DNA of 64,000 bases, from NCBI GenBank assembly GCA_050633305.1, contig JBOEGF010000005.1:427372-491371 (forward strand). Direction: 5' to 3'. Origin of the DNA: Nannocystales bacterium. Lineage in GTDB: Bacteria > Myxococcota_A > Polyangia > Nannocystales > Nannocystaceae. Position 1 is the stretch's first letter. The number at the start of each line of letters is the position of its first letter. Position numbers and translations under genes: made by a program. The notes beneath the pieces are model-generated. The model saw nothing but the letters and a program-made list of their open reading frames with translations. It was not told the origin of the DNA and made no database searches. Below are positions 7,582 to 26,190 of the stretch, piece after piece.

Positions 7582-8340
7582 CTACTCCGCGAACCGGTGT
7601 ACCGGGACCTCCCGATGTAGCCACGGTAGATACCCGTACCGCGCCTCGAGGTCCTCGCCCTCGGGCGGCATCCAGCTGGCCACGACGACTCCGCTGTCGA
7701 GCCCGAGTTGCTCCGCGGGGTCGGAGGGGTTGGAGCGAAACTGCGCGAACTCCAGGTCGCGAAGATGCGGAGAGGCTGCAAGCGCCTCCGCCGACGCTAT
7801 TGTCAGGTGGTTGTCCGCAACGGACAGCCAGCGAAGGTTCGCGGCGTGCGGCGAGTCGGCGACCAGCTGTAGGTGGAGGTCGTGCAGGCCGCAGCCGTCC
7901 ATCCGCAGGGTGCGAATCTTGGCCAGAGCGGCCGAATCGGCGAGGGCCTCATCGACATCTCGTACGGCGCTCAGATCCAGATGCTGCACGGGTGCGAGGG
8001 CGTGGATCTCATCGGCGTGGTTGACGAAGTTCGACGCACTCAGCCTGATGAGTCCGACGAACCCTCGCAAAAACAGAAAACCGTCGATCCAAGCGTCGAT
8101 CCCTTGCGTCCAGACGGAGCCATAGGTGTCCAAAAGCTCCTGGATGCGTTGCCGATTGCTGAGCGAGGCGGGGTTCCTTCGGTCCAGCCCGACTCCATCG
8201 AGCTGTAGGCGAATCAGCTCGCCCCGCGATGTCCAGCTCGGGTCGGTCAGCGCGTCGCACCAAGCCGCATAGTCGAGCCGGGGCGCGTCCTCATCCGGAG
8301 ACGCGAGGACCGCCGCGAGTAGTTCTGCCTCATCTGCCAT
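7582..8340 (-). CDS. TIGR02996 domain protein with LRR-like repeats (putative immunity protein)
   Basis: N-terminal LLAAVLASPDEDAPRLDYAAW...RGELIRLQ, FLRGFV, then LxxLxL repeats. Confidence 0.8.
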   Translation of the reverse strand: MADEAELLAAVLASPDEDAPRLDYAAWCDALTDPSWTSRGELIRLQLDGVGLDRRNPASLSNRQRIQELLDTYGSVWTQGIDAWIDGFLFLRGFVGLIRLSASNFVNHADEIHALAPVQHLDLSAVRDVDEALADSAALAKIRTLRMDGCGLHDLHLQLVADSPHAANLRWLSVADNHLTIASAEALAASPHLRDLEFAQFRSNPSDPAEQLGLDSGVVVASWMPPEGEDLEARYGYLPWLHREVPVHRFAE

Positions 8341-8395: not shown

Positions 8396-10708
8396 TCACC
8401 GGTTCGGATAGGAGAACCGGACCTTTCCCTCTCGCACCAGCTTCGCGAGGAACCTCATCGAGTGCTGGGTGTCGCGGGTGTTGACCAGGGCTTGGTACCG
8501 AGCGCTCTCGCTGTACTCGCCAAACTCGGCATCGGGCATCATCGTCACCATCTCCTCCCGGTTGGCCCGAATGTCAGCTGCGAATGTTCCGAATCTCAGC
8601 GTTGCATCTGCAACCGCGCGGCGGCGTCGCCCGACGACCGCGTTGAATCGTCTCCGCCTGATGCCGCTGGCCGCGATGAACGCTTCGCTGGCCCCGCGAG
8701 GCGTCCTCTGTTCCGCTCTGAGCGCAGCGTCTTCCGCCCTGACCCGACCGCTCGCTTCCCTGAGCGCGGCTTCGGCGGCCCTGAGCTCTTCAAGCATGCC
8801 GCGAACGTCCCCGCCTGCGGTGGGAATGCAGACTGCGATCAGCTCGCGGAGGTTCTCGTAGCCATTGAGCTCTTTTCGGAAGAAGACGATGCGCTCAGCG
8901 TAGTCGGGCCGGATGAGGTATTGAACCTCTCGGAGGGTCATCGTGTTGATGTTCCTGTTGTATGTCTCGGGGATTGCTCTCCCTGGGAGGTGGCCAGGCG
9001 TCGGCGGACTCCTGAAGTACCCGTTCGCAACGGCTGTGTTGATCGCACAAATGATGAAGCCGTCCGGCACTGCGCACTTCGGCAACGTGTCGTGGTAGTC
9101 CCACATGGCGGCGGCATCGAGAGCCTCGCCGTTCTGCCAGTCTCCAATCCCCTGACCAGGGTAGTTGTTGCTTGCAGCGCCAAGGATCCGGACGCGGCCG
9201 TTGTCCGCTTGCAACCCGACCATCCGGTTTTCGAGTTGAAGTGGAGCGAAGTTTAGCTGCCTCGCAAATGACTTCGGTTGGCCGAGCGTGTTTGACTGCT
9301 GTCCATTGGGGATGACGAGTCGGCTGTAGAGCCTGGTGGGGTTGGGATCGCCAAGCCCATAGATCACGTTCATCTGGTACTCGCCGCCGTACATCCACCA
9401 TCCGTTCTCCTCGTCCAGGACTCTCTCCTGTTGAAAGAAGTCTCGAATGGTGCCCCGGGCGCCTCCCGAGCTCTGGAGCCGGACATCGACTTTGTTCGAC
9501 TCCTCGTCGAACTCAACCTCGTTGAGTGAGGCGTTCTTTCCCATCCTGCCCTTGACCCCCGCTGGGAAGATGTTGCTTTCTTGGTCAGTCTCCAGGATTC
9601 CTGTGCCGTCGTAGAGGTCGCCAAGTTCGAATCGTTTGCCCAACTCGAAGGGCGGCAGCACCAGTGGGGGATGCGGCGCCCAGTGGGGGTGGCTTTCTGG
9701 GTACTGGAGAAATGTCCTGTTTCGAGGGTTGAGGAGAATTGGCGTCAGACCTGAGCGCCCGAACCAGTCCGCCGGGCAGTCGGCGTCACGGGCCTTCTCT
9801 GCTGCGTTGAGGCCCACGCCCCCACCCGCAGTGACGCAGATTCGTTCGGTGAAGTGCCAACTCACTTCATCGCGAATCGCATCGACGCCGTTCATGACCT
9901 TGCGGTTCTTCTGCTCGTCGGTCCAGTTTTCCGGCGAGATCCATGGAGGGGTTCGTGCCGCGACAATGACGTCGCTTTCATTCGGGGCAGGCTGACCTGC
10001 CGTCGGGAAGACCTGAGGGCGCCCCGGCCCCGTGCAAATGTCGATCTTCGATGCGTAGACCAACTCCGCAGTGCCGGTCGAGGGGTCGTACAGGCACAAG
10101 CGATAGGGGGCCTCGCCCGGCGGGTGGGCGGGCCATGCTCGGTGCGCTTGGACGTTGACCAGGCCGACGACACCGTCCCCACCTTCTTCATTCGCGAAGT
10201 CGCCCTCCGGGAGACCGACCTGGCTCGGACGGCGCTGGATGAGGGCGACCCAGCGTTCTCGGGTTTGTCCCTCGGCGCCCTTGGCTCGCTCGGCCTCCGC
10301 GTCGATCCTGTCTCCAAAGTGCTGGGAGTCTAGGCCGGAGTCTTTCGTTGGCCCCGTCATCATTGCGTCGTTGTCGAAGCCTGGGAAACTCAAGAGGTGG
10401 TTCGGTTGCCCCAACCCGTGCTGGAAGTACTTGGGCCACGGGTTCGGAAACCCGATGTGCATGATCGTCTTGCCTTCGACGCGGTTGTCGTCCGAGCGAT
10501 CCGCCTGCAGTGTCGTGCTGTTGACAACAGCCATGGGTCCCCTTCCGATGATCACGTAATAGACCTCGGGCGGCTGCATGTTGATCGCGTTGACACCGCC
10601 TCCCAGCGCGGCGGCAGCCTGCACTGGAGGCGGGGCCGGCTGGACCGGCTGCGCTGCTTGGTTCCGCTGGAGCTGAGCGAAGATGTTCAGAGGATTAGCT
10701 TGACCCAT
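8396..10708 (-). CDS. 770-aa hypothetical protein with flavoprotein (two dinucleotide-binding folds)-like motifs and ComEA-like HhH region; putative secreted effector
   Basis: YYVIIGRGPMA, IDICTGPG, ICVTAGGGVGLNAAE, LVIPNGQ, VRILGAA; NINTMTLREVQYL...AERIVFFRKELNGYENLREL. Confidence 0.6.
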   Translation of the reverse strand: MGQANPLNIFAQLQRNQAAQPVQPAPPPVQAAAALGGGVNAINMQPPEVYYVIIGRGPMAVVNSTTLQADRSDDNRVEGKTIMHIGFPNPWPKYFQHGLGQPNHLLSFPGFDNDAMMTGPTKDSGLDSQHFGDRIDAEAERAKGAEGQTRERWVALIQRRPSQVGLPEGDFANEEGGDGVVGLVNVQAHRAWPAHPPGEAPYRLCLYDPSTGTAELVYASKIDICTGPGRPQVFPTAGQPAPNESDVIVAARTPPWISPENWTDEQKNRKVMNGVDAIRDEVSWHFTERICVTAGGGVGLNAAEKARDADCPADWFGRSGLTPILLNPRNRTFLQYPESHPHWAPHPPLVLPPFELGKRFELGDLYDGTGILETDQESNIFPAGVKGRMGKNASLNEVEFDEESNKVDVRLQSSGGARGTIRDFFQQERVLDEENGWWMYGGEYQMNVIYGLGDPNPTRLYSRLVIPNGQQSNTLGQPKSFARQLNFAPLQLENRMVGLQADNGRVRILGAASNNYPGQGIGDWQNGEALDAAAMWDYHDTLPKCAVPDGFIICAINTAVANGYFRSPPTPGHLPGRAIPETYNRNINTMTLREVQYLIRPDYAERIVFFRKELNGYENLRELIAVCIPTAGGDVRGMLEELRAAEAALREASGRVRAEDAALRAEQRTPRGASEAFIAASGIRRRRFNAVVGRRRRAVADATLRFGTFAADIRANREEMVTMMPDAEFGEYSESARYQALVNTRDTQHSMRFLAKLVREGKVRFSYPNR

Positions 10709-11492
10709 GTCTTCGAAGCCTTTCGTCGGCGCTGTTTCGCTGCACTCGAGTCAGCCTTGCGTACCGCCGGATCGCGAGCAGCCCGCTGGCGTGGAGGCGC
10801 CCCGCGTGGTCGGTCGGGTTCTCCGCCGTCCGACGCTGCACCGCGCGGGACGCCCAGGGGTGGAACGGGTCCTGGTCGAAGCCGCGACCCAGCAGAAACA
10901 TCAGCATCACCCAGACACCGACACCTGCGTTCGTGGTCAGCCCGTGTGCGTGTGTCAAGGAACGACCGTGTTCGATGAGCTGCTGAACTGCGGGCTCGCC
11001 GAGCAGTTCGTACTTGGGGCGGAACATTAGGCCGAGAAGTTGGTGAAGCCCTGGGTCGTCTTCGCTGTGTGCCGCAATCTCGTCGAAGTCATGGTGGAGC
11101 ACCCACGCCAGTGCCCGTCGGTACAGGGCTCCGTCGGGACCGATCATGGGCTCCATTCGGGCAGCCGAGGTCGCCAGCAGGGCGGCCATGGCGTCTCTGC
11201 GGTTGGCGGCGTTGTGCTTGCGCAGGCTCGCGCCGGCCCACGGTAGCTGCGGGTCTTCGTCGAAATGGACCCCCAGCAAGACCATCAGGCTCACGAAGGC
11301 CGATACGTCGGCCTGCGCGTGAAAACCATGTCTCTGTGCACGCGCAATCCCGATGTCGACGGCCGCACGCGCGCCCGGGTCGGTGAGCACCAAGCAGTGT
11401 TGTGGAAAGTGAACCCAAAGGTCCTCGAGGACCGCCTCGCGCGTCTGGATGTGCTTTGGGGTCCCCGATTGGAGTGCTTCGTGTTGGGTCAT
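10695..11492 (-). CDS. Hypothetical protein with internal duplication, putative effector adaptor/chaperone
   Basis: Two copies of HG..x..LM.LLG..FD.DP..PWA; overlaps the downstream start by 14 nt. Confidence 0.6.
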   Translation of the reverse strand: MTQHEALQSGTPKHIQTREAVLEDLWVHFPQHCLVLTDPGARAAVDIGIARAQRHGFHAQADVSAFVSLMVLLGVHFDEDPQLPWAGASLRKHNAANRRDAMAALLATSAARMEPMIGPDGALYRRALAWVLHHDFDEIAAHSEDDPGLHQLLGLMFRPKYELLGEPAVQQLIEHGRSLTHAHGLTTNAGVGVWVMLMFLLGRGFDQDPFHPWASRAVQRRTAENPTDHAGRLHASGLLAIRRYARLTRVQRNSADERLRRHGSS

Positions 11493-11506: not shown

Positions 11507-12193
11507 CTACGCGTTCCCGGCATGAACGGCCGACAGGGCGGCGACCGTGGCCTGGTCGAGCTCCCCGGTGGGGTCGAGTTCTTGGACCCGCTGAAACCGC
11601 CGCAACGCAGCGGCGGTTGCGTCGTCGAGTGTTCCGTGGGCCTGGCCCTCGTAGTAGCCGAGGTTTGCCAGGCGGGCCTGCGCACCGTCGACGTCTTCGG
11701 TCGGGTTGAGCGTTCGTGGTGAGATGTCGTAGACCCGCTCCTCGTCTCCCTCGCCGACCCGCAAGATGACCTTGGTCAGGTCCGGCGGGACATACACTTC
11801 AACAACTCCGTTCGCGTCTGTCGTCCCGGCAAACGTCTTCCCGCTGTGCTCGAGGGTGTAGTCGAGGTTGGCGAGCGGTTCGTCGCACTCGAGCAGCTGA
11901 AGACGCAGCATCTCCGGTACCCCTTTGAGCTCAAAGCGATGGAGCTTCCCCGTCGGGCAGGTTTCTTCGCGCGGCTTCAGGGGGGGGATCTGCACGATGT
12001 CCCCGGGCTTGAGGACGAAGGGGGTGTCACGCGTGGCCTTGAGTTCCGCGTTGGCGGGGTGGGACCACAGCGACTCCCAGAAAAAGCCGTGTTCGTAGGC
12101 GATGCTCGACATGCACTCGCCTTGTTGGACCGTGTGTTTCTTCGTGGAACTCATCGGGACAGACTTCGTTGGTGTTGCGAAACGACTCGTCAC
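11507..12193 (-). CDS. LysM + transthyretin-like + peptidoglycan-binding domain protein
   Basis: LysM HTVQQGECMSSIA...LKPGDIVQIP; EPLANLDYTL...GTTDANG; PG_binding_1 QARLANLGY...TAAALRRFQ...TGELDQAT; GTGA overlap with the upstream gene (alternative start 12154). Confidence 0.85.
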   Translation of the reverse strand: MTSRFATPTKSVPMSSTKKHTVQQGECMSSIAYEHGFFWESLWSHPANAELKATRDTPFVLKPGDIVQIPPLKPREETCPTGKLHRFELKGVPEMLRLQLLECDEPLANLDYTLEHSGKTFAGTTDANGVVEVYVPPDLTKVILRVGEGDEERVYDISPRTLNPTEDVDGAQARLANLGYYEGQAHGTLDDATAAALRRFQRVQELDPTGELDQATVAALSAVHAGNA

Positions 12194-12732
12194 AGGGGTT
12201 CGGCGTGGACGTAACTCCAGGCCTCGCTGTCGAATTCAGGGAACGACACTTTGCAGGTACCGGCCTTTCGGATTTCCCGAATCTCGGCCCGTCCGTCGTG
12301 GTCGAGGCTGCCGCTGTGGGTTCGGCCGGCGGGGTCCAGGAGGCGATACGCGGCTCCGGCGATGGGTTCGTCCAGGGCGTTGACGAGCTCGAGCACAACG
12401 GCGTGGAGCGGAACTTCGTCCTCGTTGTCGTCCTCGGGGAGCAGCGCGGTGAGGTCGGTCGGTGCGGATGACCCCTTGGCTGACCCCGCGGATGGATGCC
12501 AAGCGACGTACTCGAGCTCCCCGCAGGCGAGGGCTCGCATCGCCTTTTCCGCGATGCGATCACCGGATTCGACCCACGCGTTGAGGAGGTTTGCGAGCGC
12601 TCGGGCGCCCGAAACGGTACTCGCGAACTCGCGGACTTCGAGCTCAACCTGGCGTGGCACATCCACGAATCTCCGGAACGGACTTCCCGAGACTTGGAGG
12701 GCGCCGAACCCGAGTTGCAGGCGTCGAAACAT
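12190..12732 (-). CDS. Hypothetical protein with C-terminal transthyretin-like domain resembling VgrG/PAAR extensions
   Basis: LELVNALDEPIAGAAYRLLDPAG..HSGSLDHDGRAEI...GTCKVSFPEFDSEAW; GAGG upstream of the ATG. Confidence 0.6.
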   Translation of the reverse strand: MFRRLQLGFGALQVSGSPFRRFVDVPRQVELEVREFASTVSGARALANLLNAWVESGDRIAEKAMRALACGELEYVAWHPSAGSAKGSSAPTDLTALLPEDDNEDEVPLHAVVLELVNALDEPIAGAAYRLLDPAGRTHSGSLDHDGRAEIREIRKAGTCKVSFPEFDSEAWSYVHAEPL

Positions 12733-16585: not shown

Positions 16586-16665
16586 GCGTCGTGAATCACT
16601 TGGTGTGAGCCAGCCCTTTCTCGCGAACCCCGAACCCGGTTATGTTCCGGGGCTTCGGGGTTCTT

Positions 16666-17706
16666 ATGCGTCGCGTTTGTCTTGTCGTTTCTTGCATTGC
16701 TGTACTCGGGCTCGGGTGTAGCTCCGAGGTGATCAATCCGTTCTCCAGCGCCACGATGGGCGCGATGGAGAGCAGCTCGGGCGCAGCGCCCGACTCGACT
16801 TCGGGCCCGCGGACGACAGGGATCAGCGGGGCCAGCATCAGCGCGAGTGGTGGGTCGACGACAGACGACGCATCGTCGAGCACCGCGTCTTCAGGCCAGG
16901 TGGATTCAAGCTCGACCACCGTGGTCGAAACGACCACCGGAACTGTCGACGAAACAACCACTGGCGGTGTCGATGAGACGACCACCGGTGTGATCGACGA
17001 GTCGACATCGTCCTCGTCGAGTTCCAGTTCGTCGAGTTCCAGCTCGTCGAGCTCCAGTTCGTCGAGCTCGAGCTCCTCCACGGGGGACGCCTGCGACCAG
17101 CCTCCCACCGACTACGATGACTGCTTCAACTCGGGCAACGGGGTTTGTGATGAACCGAACTCCACATGCCTGCTCGACGACGTGATGGCCCCGACCCATG
17201 GCGCTTGTGCGGCGCTGGAGTGCGTCGAGGACTGCGACTGCCCTGCAGCTCCCGATACCGGGACGGCCGAGTCGGTCTGCGGGGACATTTTGTCCGGAGG
17301 CGGCACGGCTTGTATTCTCGATTGCTCGGGCGGTGCGACGTGTCCCGATGGCATGAACTGCATCGGCAACCAGGTGTGCATGTGGCCCGACTTGGTCTGC
17401 GACGACCCGCCGCCGGAGGGCGTCTATGGCGACTGCCTCACCGAGGGCAACGGCGTGTGCAACAACTTGTCTGCGACCTGCCTGCAAGACGACACGATGG
17501 CCCCGACCGTGGGCGTGTGCGCTCCGCAGGGGTGTGAGACGGACTGCGACTGTCCTGCGGCCCCCGCAACCGGAGACGCGACCGTATCGTGTGGGACGAT
17601 CGTGGATGGTGGCGGGAATGCCTGCTTCCTCAGCTGCTCCGCGGGCGAGACGTGCCCCGACAGCATGGTCTGCTTCGACGACTTCCTGTGCATGTGGATG
17701 CCGTAG
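16666..17706 (+). CDS. Lipoprotein with Ser/Thr stalk and two tandem 14-Cys domains
   Basis: LGLGC lipobox, poly-Ser linker, two ~100-aa repeats each containing CxxDCDCPAAP.TG.A...C...CPD.M.C. Confidence 0.8.
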   Translation: MRRVCLVVSCIAVLGLGCSSEVINPFSSATMGAMESSSGAAPDSTSGPRTTGISGASISASGGSTTDDASSSTASSGQVDSSSTTVVETTTGTVDETTTGGVDETTTGVIDESTSSSSSSSSSSSSSSSSSSSSSSSSTGDACDQPPTDYDDCFNSGNGVCDEPNSTCLLDDVMAPTHGACAALECVEDCDCPAAPDTGTAESVCGDILSGGGTACILDCSGGATCPDGMNCIGNQVCMWPDLVCDDPPPEGVYGDCLTEGNGVCNNLSATCLQDDTMAPTVGVCAPQGCETDCDCPAAPATGDATVSCGTIVDGGGNACFLSCSAGETCPDSMVCFDDFLCMWMP

Positions 17707-17828
17707 GCCGCCGCGAGATCGCGGGATAGGCGGTGCCCGCCCTCGCTTTGCTCCTGGGGGCGGGAGGCTCTGGGCTGTCGTGTTTTTCCTGCGTCCGAGA
17801 GGGGTTTGTATGCAACCGTCGTGGCGTC

Positions 17829-19408
17829 ATGCATGTCGCCCGGATCTCGCGTTCTCTGCTTGCCGCGCTGTCGCTTCTCGCCATCACCGGTTGTGACGAC
17901 CTTCTCGGAGGGTCGTCGGACGACCAGGCCGAGGCGACGAAGTCCGAGCCCTCGGAGACGGAGGAAAAGAAGGACGAGGCGGAGAAGGAGGCCGACGGCG
18001 AGCCCGAGCCCGTCGCGGTTGTGAAGCCGGACCTTCCTCCGGAAGCGCCGAAGGAGATCGCAGGGCTGCCGTGCTCCGATGGCACAGTTGCTCGAGGCGC
18101 CGCTCCCCCCGACGGACATGAAGCGTGGTGCGAGAAGCCTGCTGATGGGGATGGAGTCGGTGTGCGGCACGGACGGTTTATCCGGTGGCACGACGCTTCG
18201 GAGCAGAAGTGGCGCGAGGGCGACTACCGTGACGGCAAGCGGCACGGCTCATGGACGACCTGGCACGAGGGCGGTGAAAAGGCCGAGGAGGGGGAGTACG
18301 CGGACGACCTGAAGTCCGGTGCTTGGACCCACTACGGCGCGGACGGAAAGAAGACATCCGAGGCTCAGTTTCGGGATGGAAAACGTCAGGGCACCTCCAA
18401 GACGTTCTTTGCAGACGGGACACCGGAGACTCAGTCGGAGTTCAAGGATGACGTCGAGACCGGAACGTTCGTTCGCTTTCACACCAACGGAAAGAAGGCC
18501 GAGGAGGGCGCATACAAGGAGGGCCGGAAGGACGGGACGTGGCGTACGTTCGACGAGTCCGAGGCTTCGCTGACCGAGGAGGTTTGGAAGGATGGAGTGC
18601 TCGAGCCGAGTGACACGATCTGTGGCGAGGAACTCGTGGCTGGGGGCGCGGCCCCTCCAAAGGGGCTGGAGCAGTGGTGTGAAACCAAGGGCGGCAAGCG
18701 CCAGGGGCCCTACAACAAGTGGTTCGAGGCGAAGACCGAAGACACGCCCCAACTCGAACTCACCGGCTCCTACGACGACGGCCAGAAGACCGGCAAATGG
18801 AGCACGTACTACGAGGACGGCGACCTTCGCGAAGAGGTGACGTACCGAGAGAACCGCCGCGAGGGCGAGTTCCTGGGCTACTGGCAAAATGCGCAGAAGC
18901 GGGTCGAGGGCGAGTACTGGGACAACCGAAAGCAGGGGGCCTGGACGTACTGGTACGGCGGTGGCCAGAAGAACGAGGAGGGCGACTTCAAGCGCGGTCA
19001 GAAGCAGGGCGAGTGGCTAGGCTGGCACCCCGGCGGGGAGCGTCGTTACATCGAGAACTACAGCGACGGCAAGCGAGAGGGCCTGGCTGAGACCTTCCAC
19101 AAAAACGACAAGCTCGAGTCCAAGGGCAAGTACAAGGACGACAAGAAGCACGGCAAGTGGACGTTCTTCGACGACACCGGAAAGAAGACCGGGACCTCCA
19201 AGTTCATCGCCGGTGAAGAGACCGAGGCGGACGAGGTCCCCGTGAAGCCGGACCCCAAGCCAGATACAAAGCCGGACACCAAACCAGACACGAAGCCGGA
19301 CCCCAAACCAGATCCGAAGCCTCCCGTGCCGACGCCGGACGCGAAGAAGAAAAAGAAGAAGGGCAAGAAGGGGAAAAGAAGAAGGGCAAGAAGGGGAAGA
19401 AGAAGTAG
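17829..19408 (+). CDS. MORN-repeat (YwqK-like) lipoprotein; probable 1-nt indel near 19375, true stop probably TAG at 19406-19408
   Basis: AITGC lipobox; many EG.Y.DG.K.G.W..Y..NG repeats; KPDT/KPDP linker; poly-Lys tail continues in the -1 frame to TAG (uncorrected ORF runs to 19541). Confidence 0.8.
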
Positions 19409-19443
19409 GCCAAGCGATTCGCGGGCCAAGCGATTCGCAGTCC

Positions 19444-19498
19444 GAATCGCGGGGGAGGGCGGAAGCGATTCGCAAAGCGAATTGCGTGCCCTCGAGGA
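19444..19498 (+). repeat. ~55-bp intergenic repeat, copy 2, preceded by two extra AAGCGATTCGC motifs (19412-19438)
   Basis: gaatcgcgggggagggcggaagcgattcgcaaagcgaattgcgtgccctcgagga matches the reverse complement of 16531-16585. Confidence 0.75.
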
Positions 19499-19525
19499 CC
19501 TCCGCAGACCTCCTCCCCCGATCCC

Positions 19526-20113
19526 CTACGCCGGGATGTGAAAGCAGATCCCGCCGTCGCAGGTCATCCCGTCCGGACACGTCTGCCCTGCGTCGCACGC
19601 CAACACGCATGCCGTCCCACCACCCTTGAGCGTCTCGCGGCAGACCGACGGCGCGTCCCCGCTGGGCGGTGCGTTGAAGCAGTCGCAGTCGTCGACGCAG
19701 TCGCGGATCATGCAGACGTTCGAGCCCTCGGTGGGTCCGTTGAGACAGCCCACTGTGCCGACGGACGCTCCGGTGCCCATGTAGTTGCATTGCGTGTTGT
19801 CGGTGCCACCGTTCTCATCCACGCAGGCGTTGTACTCGCCGATGACCGGTGGGTCGCACGCGTTGGGGTTGCCCGTCGAGCTGCTGCCCTCTGCCACGCC
19901 GGTGGAGCTGCTTCCCTCTGCCACGCCGGTGGAGCTTCCTGAGCTGCTCCCGGATGTCGTCCCTGGATCCGTCGTGGTCCCCCCTGTGCCCGCGGAGTTC
20001 GTGGTCGTCCCGGACGCCATGCCCGTGCTTCCCGGGGCTCCGGTATCGTCCCCATCGCCGTCACAGGCCCCTAGAAGCAACACAGCGGCACATCCCAAGA
20101 CAAAACGCGTCAT
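19526..20113 (-). CDS. Lipoprotein with Ser/Thr/Gly stalk and one 14-Cys domain (paralog of the 16666 protein's domains)
   Basis: LLGAC lipobox; CVDDCDCFNAPPSGDAPSVC...CPDGMTC; 30-bp tandem repeat encoding SSTGVAEGSS. Confidence 0.8.
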   Translation of the reverse strand: MTRFVLGCAAVLLLGACDGDGDDTGAPGSTGMASGTTTNSAGTGGTTTDPGTTSGSSSGSSTGVAEGSSSTGVAEGSSSTGNPNACDPPVIGEYNACVDENGGTDNTQCNYMGTGASVGTVGCLNGPTEGSNVCMIRDCVDDCDCFNAPPSGDAPSVCRETLKGGGTACVLACDAGQTCPDGMTCDGGICFHIPA

Positions 20114-20178
20114 TCCCCGAGTATCTCGCACGCACGGCGCGCCCCACAACTCCCGTGCGGAACGTATGCTCCGCGCCG

Positions 20179-23168: not shown

Positions 23169-24746
23169 CTACCAGCGGTAGGTGAACAGCAGTCTTGCTT
23201 CTTGTGAGTCGGCGAAGGTGCCCTCGGCGAACCCCGTTTCTTCGCGCCGGTTCTGGTAGACGGCCGATGCGAAGAAGACGTTGCGCCACAGGTACACGTG
23301 GGCGGCGGTGCGCCATTGGGTGGACTGAAGCTGGCGACGGAGGTCGGCTTGCACGTCGTCGGCATCGGGCGGCGAGTCGAAGTCGGAAGCGAGGAACTGA
23401 CCGAAGTCGGCCGCGAGCAGGATGCGCTTCTCCCATGCGAGGAAGCCGAGCTGCGCATTGTAGGCGTTCTGGAAGTTCCCGAATTCGAGTTCGCGCTTGC
23501 CGTAGTACTCGCCCTGCAGGTGGAAGCGCCAGTAGCGGAAGATCGTCTGAGCGTTCCAGGCGGGGTAGCGCTCTTGAGCCCTCTGATCGTACTTCACGCC
23601 GCCGACCAGGGCGAGCGTCATGGGCGACTTCGTGTACAGGAACGGAGTATCCCAGCGGTTGTAGTAGCCGATGATGTTGGACCAGACCTGACCACCGACG
23701 GACCACGTGTAGCGCGTGTTGCCGTCAGGGAAGAAGGTTCCGCCAAGGTTGCCGTTGAAGCGGCCTGAACCACCGGCTGCGAAGGCGCGGTAGAGGAACC
23801 GGCTCTTCTTGTCGATGGGTCCACCGAACTCGAGCGCGGCGCCGTTGCCCTGCTCGAAGCCGTTGTAGAGGTAAAACGCTTGGTCGACGAGCAGTCGCTT
23901 GTGTACGGAGCGAACGGGCTCGAGCGCCAGACCGCCCCCACCGCTGTTGATGTTGAAGTAGTGGCCCTTCTTGCCGATCGGAACCTGGAACAGGGCGAAC
24001 GTGACTCGGGGGGTCTTCTCGACGCGGGAGCTGATCAGGAAGAACGAGTTCTGGATGAACGGCATCTGGCCGAGTACCCGGAGCTGGAGGCTCTCGAACT
24101 CGGTGGTGAACTGTTCGTCTTCGGTGTTGTAGCCGAGCGCTTCAATGCGGCCCACGAGCGAGAGCCGGAAGTCGCCCGAGGGCTGGCAGATCGTGACCTG
24201 TGTATCGAGCCGACATCCAATGTCTTCGCAGTCGATACGGCCGTCGTCATCGTTGTCGATGCCGTCCGAGCACAGGACGTTGGAGTTCTCGCCGAAGTTG
24301 TCGTCTTCGGCGACAACCGTGGGGGCTCCGGTCACGACGTTGCCCGAGGACCCGCCGACCGTTGTGTTTCCAGAGCCGGCAGAACCCGACTCTGGGACGG
24401 CGCCTCCGGCCATCTCGGTGTCCCAAGATCCGTAGCAAGCCGTGCTGCCGTTGCAGTCATCGTCATCGCAGTCGACGTAGCCGTCGGCGTCGTTGTCGAT
24501 CCAGTCCTCGCAACGTTCGGGCGTGTTCTCGGGTTCGCCGTCGGAGGCGCAGGCCGGGTCCTTCTTGCAGTCGTTGTCCCCGCAATCGAAGACGAGGTCG
24601 CCGTCGTTGTCCTGACCATCGTCGCAGACCGTCTCTTTGGCGGTCCCGTCCGGAGCGGCCATCGCAGTCGCACCCGTCAGGAACGTGAAGACGAATGCAA
24701 CCGGCCCGAGTAGGCGCAGCAGGTTGGTGGAAGTGCAGAGCGTCAT
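23169..24746 (-). CDS. Outer-membrane beta-barrel/porin-like protein with three N-terminal Cys/Asp (CxDGxDNDxDGxxDCxDxxC) repeats
   Basis: Signal peptide ending AMA-A; three acidic repeats; amphipathic beta-strands ending LLFTYRW (aromatic C-terminus). Confidence 0.7.
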   Translation of the reverse strand: MTLCTSTNLLRLLGPVAFVFTFLTGATAMAAPDGTAKETVCDDGQDNDGDLVFDCGDNDCKKDPACASDGEPENTPERCEDWIDNDADGYVDCDDDDCNGSTACYGSWDTEMAGGAVPESGSAGSGNTTVGGSSGNVVTGAPTVVAEDDNFGENSNVLCSDGIDNDDDGRIDCEDIGCRLDTQVTICQPSGDFRLSLVGRIEALGYNTEDEQFTTEFESLQLRVLGQMPFIQNSFFLISSRVEKTPRVTFALFQVPIGKKGHYFNINSGGGGLALEPVRSVHKRLLVDQAFYLYNGFEQGNGAALEFGGPIDKKSRFLYRAFAAGGSGRFNGNLGGTFFPDGNTRYTWSVGGQVWSNIIGYYNRWDTPFLYTKSPMTLALVGGVKYDQRAQERYPAWNAQTIFRYWRFHLQGEYYGKRELEFGNFQNAYNAQLGFLAWEKRILLAADFGQFLASDFDSPPDADDVQADLRRQLQSTQWRTAAHVYLWRNVFFASAVYQNRREETGFAEGTFADSQEARLLFTYRW

Positions 24747-24750
24747 CGGA

Positions 24751-26190
24751 TTACTCGGTGTCGGATTCGGATTCGGAGTCATCTGCACTCGGGCGGGTCG
24801 GGCCCATCCATTCGCAGACACGGGGGCCGTCGTTGCAGACGGTGACCAGGGGGTCGTACGCGCAGTCGAAGTCTTCACAGTCGACGAATCCGTCGAGGTC
24901 TTCGTCCTCGCCATTGGTGCAGCGCTCGTTGGCAGCGTCGCGTTGAGCGTCGCCGGGGTCATCCTGCGCATCGATGACGCCATCGAAGTTCATGTCGAAA
25001 GCGTTGGTACCGCTCTCCTTACAGGCGATGACGACCAGCGCGTCGTCGGCCTGCGCGCACCCAAAATCGGCACAGTCGATGAAGCCGTTGCCGTCGTTGT
25101 CGATGCCGTCCGTGCATCGCTCGAAGGTGTTCTCGAGCGACTCAGCGCAAAACTCGACGGCTTCCATGGACGCTCCGGACATGGCGTCCTGGCAGCTGAA
25201 GTCTTCGCAGTCGGTGAAACCGTCGGCATCGTTGTCCTCGCCGTCCGTGCACTCCTCGACGCTTGTCTCCTCGAACTGAGCGCAGGCCTCGACGACCGCC
25301 TGGTTTTCGCTCATCGAACAGCTGAAGTCGCTGCAATCGGCAAAGCCGTTGCCGTCGTTGTCTTCGCCGTCGGTACACTTCTCGATCGTGTCTTCGGCGC
25401 TCTCGCGGCAGAACAGTACAATCTGCTGGTTCGGGTTCATCGAGCAGCTGAAGTCACCGCAGTCGGTGAACATGTTGCCGTCGTTGTCGACGCCATCGGA
25501 GCACTTCTCCAGCGTGTCCTCCGGCTCCGGGTCGTTGCCGCAGACGGGGTCCGCGAAGCAGCCGGCGAGGTCTTCGCAGTCGGTCAGACCGTTCTGGTCG
25601 TTGTCGATTTCGTCGTCACAGTTGCCGACCTCGGCGCAGGGCCCGATCCCCGCGCAGTCCTCGTCGGCGCAATCGATGCCTTCGCCAAACCGGTCATCGT
25701 TGTCATTGTCGATGCCGTCGGAGCAGCGCTCGGGCGTGTTCTCGGCGCAAACGGTGACGAATTTGGCGTTGCGGCACCCGAAGTCCTCGCAGTCGGCGAA
25801 GCCGTTCTGGTCGTTGTCGAGGCCGTCTGTGCACAACTCGTTGGTGAACTCGCGTAGACAGCAGGTCTCGGCGATCGCTTGGCATTTGCGATCGCCACAG
25901 TCGAACTGACCGTTGTGGTCGTTGTCGATCCGGTCGAAGCAATCGTTGAACGAGTCCTCGGGCTGGACAGTGCCGTCGTCGGGGATGACTTCACCGCAGA
26001 GCACGGAGAACACGAGGCACTCGGGATCGCGGCAATCGATCAGGCCGTCGAAGTCGTTATCCTGGCCGTCTTGGCAGGCAAACTCGTCGATCTCGTAGCC
26101 GTACACGGGCAACGCGGGCGCCTGCCCGCACGAAGCGAGACCGAGCGCGGCCAGCCCGGCCAGCGTCAGGAATCGGGCTACTTGAGACAC
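24751..26190 (-). CDS. Lipoprotein with ten CxDGxDNDxNGFxDCxDFxC repeats (putative Ca-binding)
   Basis: LGLASC lipobox; ten repeats counted; start overlaps the nuclease stop. Confidence 0.85.
   Translation of the reverse strand: MSQVARFLTLAGLAALGLASCGQAPALPVYGYEIDEFACQDGQDNDFDGLIDCRDPECLVFSVLCGEVIPDDGTVQPEDSFNDCFDRIDNDHNGQFDCGDRKCQAIAETCCLREFTNELCTDGLDNDQNGFADCEDFGCRNAKFVTVCAENTPERCSDGIDNDNDDRFGEGIDCADEDCAGIGPCAEVGNCDDEIDNDQNGLTDCEDLAGCFADPVCGNDPEPEDTLEKCSDGVDNDGNMFTDCGDFSCSMNPNQQIVLFCRESAEDTIEKCTDGEDNDGNGFADCSDFSCSMSENQAVVEACAQFEETSVEECTDGEDNDADGFTDCEDFSCQDAMSGASMEAVEFCAESLENTFERCTDGIDNDGNGFIDCADFGCAQADDALVVIACKESGTNAFDMNFDGVIDAQDDPGDAQRDAANERCTNGEDEDLDGFVDCEDFDCAYDPLVTVCNDGPRVCEWMGPTRPSADDSESESDTE

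Follow-up and report, generated by a model that had tools for sequence, protein, structure and literature searches.

The question raised by this locus is what a flavoprotein fold, a helix-hairpin-helix (HhH)-like module and a leucine-rich repeat (LRR) neighbor are doing together in one gene cassette of a Nannocystales bacterium. The stretch of DNA analyzed (64,000 nucleotides, referred to here as the window) encodes a 770-aa protein that a first-pass annotation, made from the sequence alone, described as a degenerate FAD/NAD(P) flavoprotein joined to a ComEA-like HhH, and proposed as a horizontally exchanged, redox-active or DNA-targeting toxin. The best explanation is that this protein is the stand-alone form of a toxin domain of contractile-injection conflict systems, of either type VI secretion system (T6SS) or extracellular contractile injection system (eCIS) type. 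Judging from sequence comparisons and modelling, it is probably an injected flavoenzyme toxin that is held inactive in the producer by a cognate LRR protein.

An AlphaFold2 model of the 770-aa protein, built from a 111-sequence alignment, has a pLDDT of 86 and a pTM of 0.87. Over residues 47-564 the model was matched by VIA-align to YpdA (Z 17.2, rmsd 3.0, 300 aligned residues), thioredoxin reductases (Z 16.6), flavin-containing monooxygenases (FMOs; Z 15.5) and PvdA (Z 14.3), with 8-14% identity to solved flavoproteins, and a Foldseek search was led by SidA and PvdA (E 2.7e-10). The nearest neighbors in a language-model atlas are likewise flavoenzymes of the N-hydroxylase, FMO or thiol-disulfide reductase kind, and at the sequence level NfnI/GltD-type NADPH domains are matched (E 1.2e-10) by a broad-family profile built from 43 diverse members. 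The Rossmann flavoprotein fold of the first-pass annotation is the fold on which the model, Foldseek and VIA-align agree. Its seven quoted motifs are present in the order given, at residues 50-60, 222-229, 290-304, 464-470, 506-512, 586-598 and 604-623, and coincide with the most conserved columns of the family.

The word "degenerate" was an overstatement, as the cofactor-binding glycines are 98-100% conserved. G55, G57 and A60 are found in 98%, 98% and 91% of the 111 members, and in the broad set, which includes versions embedded in giant proteins, G55, G100, Q101, G227, G229 and G510 are invariant (43/43) and G57, D223, R507 and N562 are present in 42 of 43. The giant-protein versions (17-20% identity) do not keep H97 or the VPDG stretch. 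Within the stand-alone family, R329 is nearly invariant.

The window protein appears to be a member of the two-dinucleotide-binding flavoprotein superfamily that joins none of the named families, because it has neither a CxxC motif nor FxGxxxHxxxY/F/W, the fingerprint of FMOs and Baeyer-Villiger monooxygenases (BVMOs). It shares with YpdA/Bdr and low-Mr thioredoxin reductase (7a7b, 5vt3) the two-Rossmann layout (Z 17.2 and 16.6 over 295-300 residues, with an rmsd of about 3), but differs from them in its 11-13% identity, in about 200 extra insertion residues, in its C-terminal HhH and toxin-type context, and in the missing CxxC, any core version of which occurs in only 4 of the 111 members. 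No NCBIfam or Pfam match to the YpdA/Bdr family was obtained, and the broad profile matches 7a76 at E 0.0036. With the class B monooxygenases (SidA/PvdA and bacterial FMOs; 4b63, 3s61, 4a9w) it has in common the Foldseek match (E 2.7e-10), Z scores of 14-15.6, the order of the motifs and an arginine that follows the NADPH domain's second strand. This residue, Arg318, lies at the 2'-phosphate position, is present in the window protein and 62 of 111 members, and is placed at R279 of SidA, reported to confer NADPH preference (PMC7347517), only by a weak profile alignment (probability 37%). In contrast to these monooxygenases, the FMO/BVMO fingerprint is found in 0 of 111 members, the Gly-rich loop of the family lacks the Gln-Ser of the GxGQS motif, PF13434 matches are absent from the 46 + 74 members scanned, and siderophore genes are missing. 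Neither the window protein nor the 46 members scanned gave any Pfam flavoprotein match. A profile comparison with 3 of 8 N-hydroxylase loci proved too weak (probability 4% and 37%) to place G100-Q101 on a residue of the N-hydroxylase active site.

A clue to function that the first-pass annotation missed is the gene that follows. Its 252-aa product matches TIGR02996 (37.7 bits against a cut-off of 29), GALA LRR (1e-22) and RNase inhibitor (1e-16) profiles, as ribonuclease inhibitor, GALA-type LRR and TIGR02996 proteins do, but differs from the ribonuclease inhibitor/GALA-type LRR proteins in having about three repeats and a conserved C-terminal hairpin of its own family (residues 211-223). The 11-Mb genome contains exactly two TIGR02996 matches, one adjoining each of its two flavoprotein genes. 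Adjacency was counted in 50 loci; two duplicates were dropped, and 43 of the remaining 48 have downstream DNA. The partner lies at most 250 bp downstream in 36 of these 43, and in the other seven it is 0.8-4.4 kb downstream (five), upstream (one) or about 4 kb further on (one).

Because the first partner profile had been iterated on the counted loci, two held-out tests were run with a fixed alignment. In the phylum-wide search that started from the flavoprotein, the partner was found within 1.5 kb in 7 of 9 new loci; in the search that started from the partner, 3 of 11 blind-picked partner-like genes led to new flavoprotein domains, and six weaker LRR matches had no flavoprotein. Trees of the two proteins mirror each other (Spearman 0.75 over 38 pairs, 0 of 2000 permutations, split or truncated pairs left out), and nearest neighbors agree in 34 of the 38 pairs. 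The linkage of the LRR gene to the flavoprotein gene is near-obligate and co-diverging. The possibility that TIGR02996-LRR proteins are generic neighbors of giant toxins was considered: in genomes rich in such genes, the top-scoring full-length subtype is found mainly at flavoprotein loci.

Some loci depart from the usual pair. The partner gene is tandemly duplicated in one (L050:15958-17698), and in another (L012:858-2248) a relative of the flavoprotein is split over two overlapping frames, a frameshift or assembly error, with the partner upstream rather than downstream. Full-length partner genes with no nearby flavoprotein (L078:3662-4504, L079:9195-9980) are possibly orphan immunity genes. 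One genome (G229) has 62 matches to the partner profile, most of them partial, which amounts to a TIGR02996-LRR-like expansion.

Modelling of the complex covered residues 44-632 together with the LRR partner, FAD and NADP, the ligands being unscored. The complex score was 0.77 (runs 0.77, 0.00 and 0.78) against 0.00 for the best control. Of 157 solved pairs, 116 attain the score mark, as do 2 of 215 mismatched ones, figures that apply only roughly here. The minimum between-run agreement was 0%, and the partner pLDDT was at least 82. On the flavoprotein, the modelled interface comprises residues 294-297 (the NAD(P)H glycine loop), 317-324, 468-473 and 517-530, along with HhH residues 592-612; on the partner it comprises the conserved hairpin 211-223. 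The model supports binding of the LRR protein to the flavoprotein, and the hairpin may cap the cofactor entry.

The surroundings of the family point to injection systems. VgrG, DUF4123, DUF2169 or PAAR genes are present in 10 of 31 stand-alone loci and in 9 of the 18 loci of at least 10 kb, compared with 14 such spike and adaptor markers in the whole 11-Mb genome, which elsewhere encodes two full-length VipB proteins and nine VgrG-type matches. The LysM/peptidoglycan (PG)-binding, helical and 180-aa genes of the cassette recur upstream in related loci. The distant homologs are domains within open frames of 1,700-8,000 residues, and eCIS_core (DUF4157), which is reported to mark long-linker eCIS toxins (PMC8213781, PMC11297309), was detected in 8 of the 22 giant carriers scanned, some of which are cut by contig ends. 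Co-domains in the giant carriers include ADP-ribosyltransferase, annexin repeats, calpain-like peptidase (C2) and BMT5-like methyltransferase, with a transglutaminase-like domain in one further partial frame. Whatever the co-domains, the gene after the giant carrier is usually the same LRR partner.

The flavoprotein domain has been found stand-alone, fused to the LysM/PG-binding protein and in giant multi-toxin proteins. One domain with several delivery modules and a dedicated neighbor is the standard argument for polymorphic toxins and their immunity proteins (PMC3482391), and for that reason the pair is read here as a polymorphic toxin domain with its immunity protein. The effector reading of the first-pass annotation thus gains support from the LRR partner, the T6SS/eCIS contexts and the giant multi-toxin proteins. 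Close homologs in ordinary metabolic operons, named there as a reason to abandon that reading, were found at none of the loci examined. The giant proteins themselves (L042-L051, L058, L059, L080-L082, L090, L105-L113) carry tandem toxin-like domains, many without a Pfam name; judged by motif, certain segments resemble RelA/SpoT in L045 and L055, PIN and kinase domains in L049 and a zeta toxin in L108.

Several observations weigh against an injected toxin with a cognate inhibitor. No spike or adaptor marker is seen in 21 of the 31 stand-alone loci, and no VgrG or adaptor gene is present on the window contig or on the contig of the paralog; in the giant proteins, further domains often follow the flavoprotein domain. 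Of 42 loci, 35 have a convergent partner gene and seven, including the window locus, a co-oriented one; the convergence counts against a toxin-immunity pair because most immunity genes are co-transcribed with their toxins, although convergent colicin immunity genes provide a precedent. The adjacency profile was iterated on the same loci, leaving only the held-out sets free of circularity, and there two of the nine carriers showed no partner over a distance of 10 kb or more, and in the blind set two full-length partners with high scores had no flavoprotein nearby. Mirrored trees can arise from linkage alone, and related loci are not independent. One of the three complex runs scored 0.00. Finally, toxicity, flavin binding, secretion, turnover and rescue are all computational predictions here.

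If the toxin reading is right, the LRR protein would cap the NAD(P)H entry of the flavoprotein in the producer, the upstream LysM/PG-binding and helical proteins might load the cargo onto a spike encoded elsewhere, and the freed enzyme would transfer hydride from NAD(P)H first to FAD, then to O2, in the target cell. As to chemistry, a futile NAD(P)H-oxidase cycle, with cofactor drain and peroxide as its effects, is somewhat favored, since it is mostly cofactor-binding positions that survive across 17-20% identity while H97 and VPDG are lost, and since related enzymes leak peroxide when uncoupled (PMC7347517). Oxygenation of one specific target by a monooxygenase is the next most plausible, at roughly one chance in three, and is kept in play by the invariance of G100-Q101 and the near-invariance of R329 in the stand-alone family; these residues could mark a specific substrate site, contrary to a substrate-free oxidase, and so count against that part of the proposal. 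Other chemistry would take up the small remainder.

The leaders of some family members suggest a more particular, and clearly less probable, version. The Gln/Pro/Ala-rich N-terminus (53% Q/P/A) reported for the window protein is confirmed; it has Gly2 and no Cys. Of the 103 members whose N-terminus was usable, 43 start with Met-Gly, against 7.5% of 844 background starts, and 30 have Gly2 with a Cys at positions 3-6, against 0.24% of the same background; these counts overstate significance as the members are related and the background starts rough. In representatives below 50% identity the combination remains in 10 of 61. Some Cys-rich leaders lack Gly2. Acidic dileucine motifs, which act in sorting, are present as [DE]xxxL[LI] in 11 of the 30 Gly2-Cys leaders, against 1.7 by shuffling, and show no enrichment among the remaining 67 leaders, which are non-Cys. 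The flavoprotein paralog starts Met-Gly-Cys-Cys-Cys and has such a motif in its leader. Gly2 with a nearby Cys directs host acylation of the plant-pathogen effectors AvrRpm1 and AvrB (PMC4951486); family members share the residues, but AvrRpm1 and AvrB are type III effectors of plant pathogens, and acylation here is a matter of sequence resemblance. At perhaps one chance in five, the family might be an injected NADPH oxidase directed at eukaryotes, for example fungi and protists, as prey or as predators, with a leader acylated by host enzymes, dileucine routing to vacuolar or endosomal membranes, NADPH consumption that yields peroxide, and a ribonuclease-inhibitor-like LRR protein holding the enzyme shut in the producer. 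If so, flavoenzymes would form a class of injected toxin, some TIGR02996 proteins would gain their first function, and the lipidation-like leaders would point to a possible route by which predatory or soil bacteria attack fungi or protists.

Of the competing explanations, the one that survives best, although unlikely, is an enzyme accessory to the injection system and itself non-toxic, acting in modification or maturation of cargo or sheath or in protection from oxidative counter-attack, with the LRR protein as a regulator or substrate adaptor. Fusion to the LysM/PG-binding protein, the often internal rather than terminal position in giant proteins, the usually convergent partner gene and the lack of any toxin family match in Pfam, NCBIfam or PADLOC would all suit such an enzyme. 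However, few carriers of T6SS or eCIS cores have the flavoprotein (one genome, G259, has 40 eCIS_core matches and a single detected flavoprotein locus), the domain is joined to different toxin domains in different proteins, and a dedicated RNase-inhibitor-type partner that appears in the model to contact the cofactor loop fits inhibition.

Rather less probable is the DNA-targeted redox toxin of the first-pass annotation, in which the HhH would bind DNA and the flavin would oxidize or modify bases locally. There is an HhH-like part in the protein, weak as it is by sequence: the family profile matches EEPD1 at E 8.5e-8 and ComEA at E 0.098, 24 of 46 near homologs match Pfam HHH_3 (best member E 1e-4), and N586, N588 and R611 are kept in 93%, 96% and 97% of the stand-alone family. 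The basic leaders of some relatives might also serve as nuclear signals. The module has the N-x-N-T start, helix spacing and R...NG-Y/F motif of ComEA/EEPD1 HhH_3, but in the window protein it scores 18.5 bits against a Pfam cut-off of 27, it contains a long helical insertion, and it has lost the glycines of the Gly-hydrophobic-Gly hairpin, the DNA-contacting element of HhH modules, which is found in 3 of 110 members; DNA binding is doubtful. The same Pfam scan also matches the T2SSK family (6 of 46), which is not known to bind DNA; the giant-protein versions end before the HhH, yet keep the LRR partner; and some HhH residues are part of the modelled contact surface with the partner. The Arg/Ala region noted at first is also present, as a helical hairpin (42% R/A). 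It is a lineage-specific insertion, as positions 588 to 767 span 180 residues here where the family median is 74; two structure searches with the C-terminal model were filled by generic coiled-coil matches. HhH and coiled hairpin would both be accessory to the predicted toxin.

An inactive flavin- or nucleotide-binding scaffold, which would poison when it binds a cofactor or protein or sequesters it, or would be a mere interaction module, is improbable. The low identity to solved flavoproteins and the non-canonical motifs (A294 in the second glycine loop of the window protein, Gly-Ala-Ala in place of the expected GD motif, Arg318 in part of the family) would agree with inactivity, but both nucleotide sites and the ATG-like motif are kept over 17-20% identity, a pattern difficult to account for unless the enzyme turns over. 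That the protein is a common flavoenzyme of metabolism or biosynthesis (an N-hydroxylase, FMO or thiol-disulfide reductase) in a variable region, as its structural and language-model neighbors might suggest, is largely refuted by context, with no biosynthetic genes in the cassette and related domains embedded in giant eCIS-core proteins, as well as by the CxxC, fingerprint and Pfam results given above.

The predicted toxin family is patchily distributed. A word-indexed search in which 8000 candidates were scored, restricted to lengths of 423-1348, gave 46 proteins, and an exhaustive search gave 179 family representatives at E <=0.001. Named members belong to the Myxococcota (Sorangium, Nannocystaceae, Pseudenhygromyxa) and Acidobacteriota, and all members bearing a product name are "hypothetical". 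The family was found in 17 of 300 genomes of the class and in none of three genomes of the same genus, and the broader profile, at E <=1e-12, in 12 of 401 genomes of the phylum; the single paralog in this genome, on contig C38, is 37% identical. A branch of 440-500-aa proteins (P0117, P0128, P0133, P0137, P0147, P0155 and similar) has a shorter HhH-like tail and no long leader, and two of its members are named from Bryobacteraceae.

Horizontal exchange, as first proposed, is consistent with this patchy distribution and draws nothing from base composition. The 60-nt line at 9241-9300 does have 55% GC, but 40 of the 1066 such lines in the window are at or below that figure, and low GC was rejected as a sign of transfer, the 55% line being a matter of chance. 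The window gene as a whole has 62.3% GC, against 66.0+/-2.0% for 4232 long open reading frames (ORFs) of the genome (3rd percentile), and its GC3 is at the 15th percentile of the same set.

To our knowledge, known injected bacterial toxins are mostly hydrolases, nucleases, transferases or pore formers. The kind of system described here, an injected toxin with its immunity protein, is a known one, and the flavoprotein as toxin domain would be the new element. As in the T6SS/eCIS polymorphic toxin-immunity systems described by Zhang et al. (2012, PMC3482391), Geller et al. (2021, PMC8213781) and PMC11297309, the domain stands alone beside VgrG, DUF4123 or DUF2169 or lies behind DUF4157 with long linkers, and there is an adjacent immunity-type gene, Imm-LRR proteins being listed by Zhang et al. 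The differences are that the catalytic domain here is a flavoprotein and that most partner genes are convergent. In the portion of Zhang et al. that was searched, the sole oxidoreductase toxin is an aldo-keto reductase, and "flavin" and "FAD" have no matches in the searched text of the three papers. A flavoprotein toxin domain was likewise absent from literature searches and from the main text of four toxin surveys, whose supplements could list one. No function for TIGR02996 proteins was found in literature searches, from which subscription journals were mostly out of reach. If the toxin reading is correct, it adds a killing chemistry, possibly direct weaponized peroxide production, and gives a subset of TIGR02996-LRR proteins a testable role as enzyme inhibitors resembling ribonuclease inhibitor. 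The two-gene pair is small and present in cultured Sorangium, so that toxicity, rescue and NAD(P)H-oxidase assays would be direct.

Coordinates of the cassette genes and of features within the 770-aa protein (window positions)
Feature	Position	Strand	Basis
Predicted toxin, 770-aa flavoprotein-HhH protein (P0001)	8396..10708	minus	ORF and translation, family, AlphaFold2 model
Variable N-terminal leader, residues 1-45; starts Met-Gly, lacks the Cys cluster and acidic dileucine of relatives	10574..10708	minus
Two-dinucleotide-binding flavoprotein core, residues 47-564	9017..10570	minus	VIA-align, profile matches
FAD beta-alpha-beta motif, G55/G57/A60	10529..10561	minus	Conservation in family
Loop with invariant G100-Q101, candidate flavin-side catalytic residue	10403..10420	minus	Conservation
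NAD(P)H site: glycine loop 294-299, E304, W315, R318, R329-N330	9719..9841	minus	Conservation, alignment
ComEA/EEPD1-like HhH_3 module, residues 584-627, without Gly-h-Gly hairpin	8828..8959	minus	Profile matches
Arg/Ala-rich helical hairpin, lineage-specific insert in HhH module	8540..8812	minus	Models, insertion length
Predicted cognate inhibitor, 252-aa TIGR02996 and ribonuclease-inhibitor-type LRR protein	7582..8340	minus	Profiles, adjacency, complex model
265-aa helical protein, candidate loading chaperone or adaptor	10695..11492	minus	Recurs upstream in many loci
228-aa LysM-like and PG_binding_1 protein	11507..12193	minus	Pfam matches; fused to flavoprotein in some relatives
180-aa protein with small C-terminal beta domain, first cassette gene	12190..12732	minus	Family recurs in related loci

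The cassette consists of five co-oriented genes, the flavoprotein gene being the fourth. The 180-aa and 228-aa genes overlap by 4 nt, the 265-aa gene overlaps the flavoprotein start by 14 nt, and the LRR gene starts 55 nt after the flavoprotein gene, preceded by a purine-rich ribosome-binding stretch. Promoter and terminator scans of the cassette gave nothing above chance, and none of its five proteins matched a PADLOC (anti-phage defense) profile at E 0.01. Pfam, NCBIfam and PADLOC assign no family to the core of the flavoprotein or to the 265-aa and 180-aa proteins. The 228-aa protein matches PG_binding_1 (E 4.8e-15) and LysM (E 0.049) in Pfam, and is fused to the flavoprotein in the relatives L052 and P0129 and, by N-terminal sequence only, in P0171. 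The 265-aa protein resembles part of DUF4123 proteins outside the named families weakly and under the bar (TM 0.35). The 180-aa protein has weak matches to CnaB-type repeats (E 0.003) and a non-significant one to a T6SS chain (6sjl, E 0.88).

The cassette occurs a second time in this genome (C38:151195-155921), where it comprises LysM/PG-binding, helical and flavoprotein genes and a convergent TIGR02996-LRR gene. Four further LysM/PG-binding paralogs on contigs C2, C6, C14 and C20, and several short helical or 180-aa-type paralogs, lie away from any flavoprotein or VgrG gene, and may belong to other orphan cargo cassettes. In a related locus (L006:650-7371), two LysM/PG-binding genes precede the flavoprotein gene, each followed by a different large ORF of unknown type (800 and 530 aa), an arrangement that looks like serial cargo cassettes.

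Elsewhere in the window, two minus-strand proteins at 23169-26190 contain many Asp/Cys-rich repeats of the D-G-x-D-N-D type, and are probably calcium-binding surface proteins. The region at 16642-20149 encodes Ser/Thr-rich, Cys-rich predicted lipoproteins and, from its translation, a MORN-like repeat protein with short Asp-Thr-Lys-Pro repeats.

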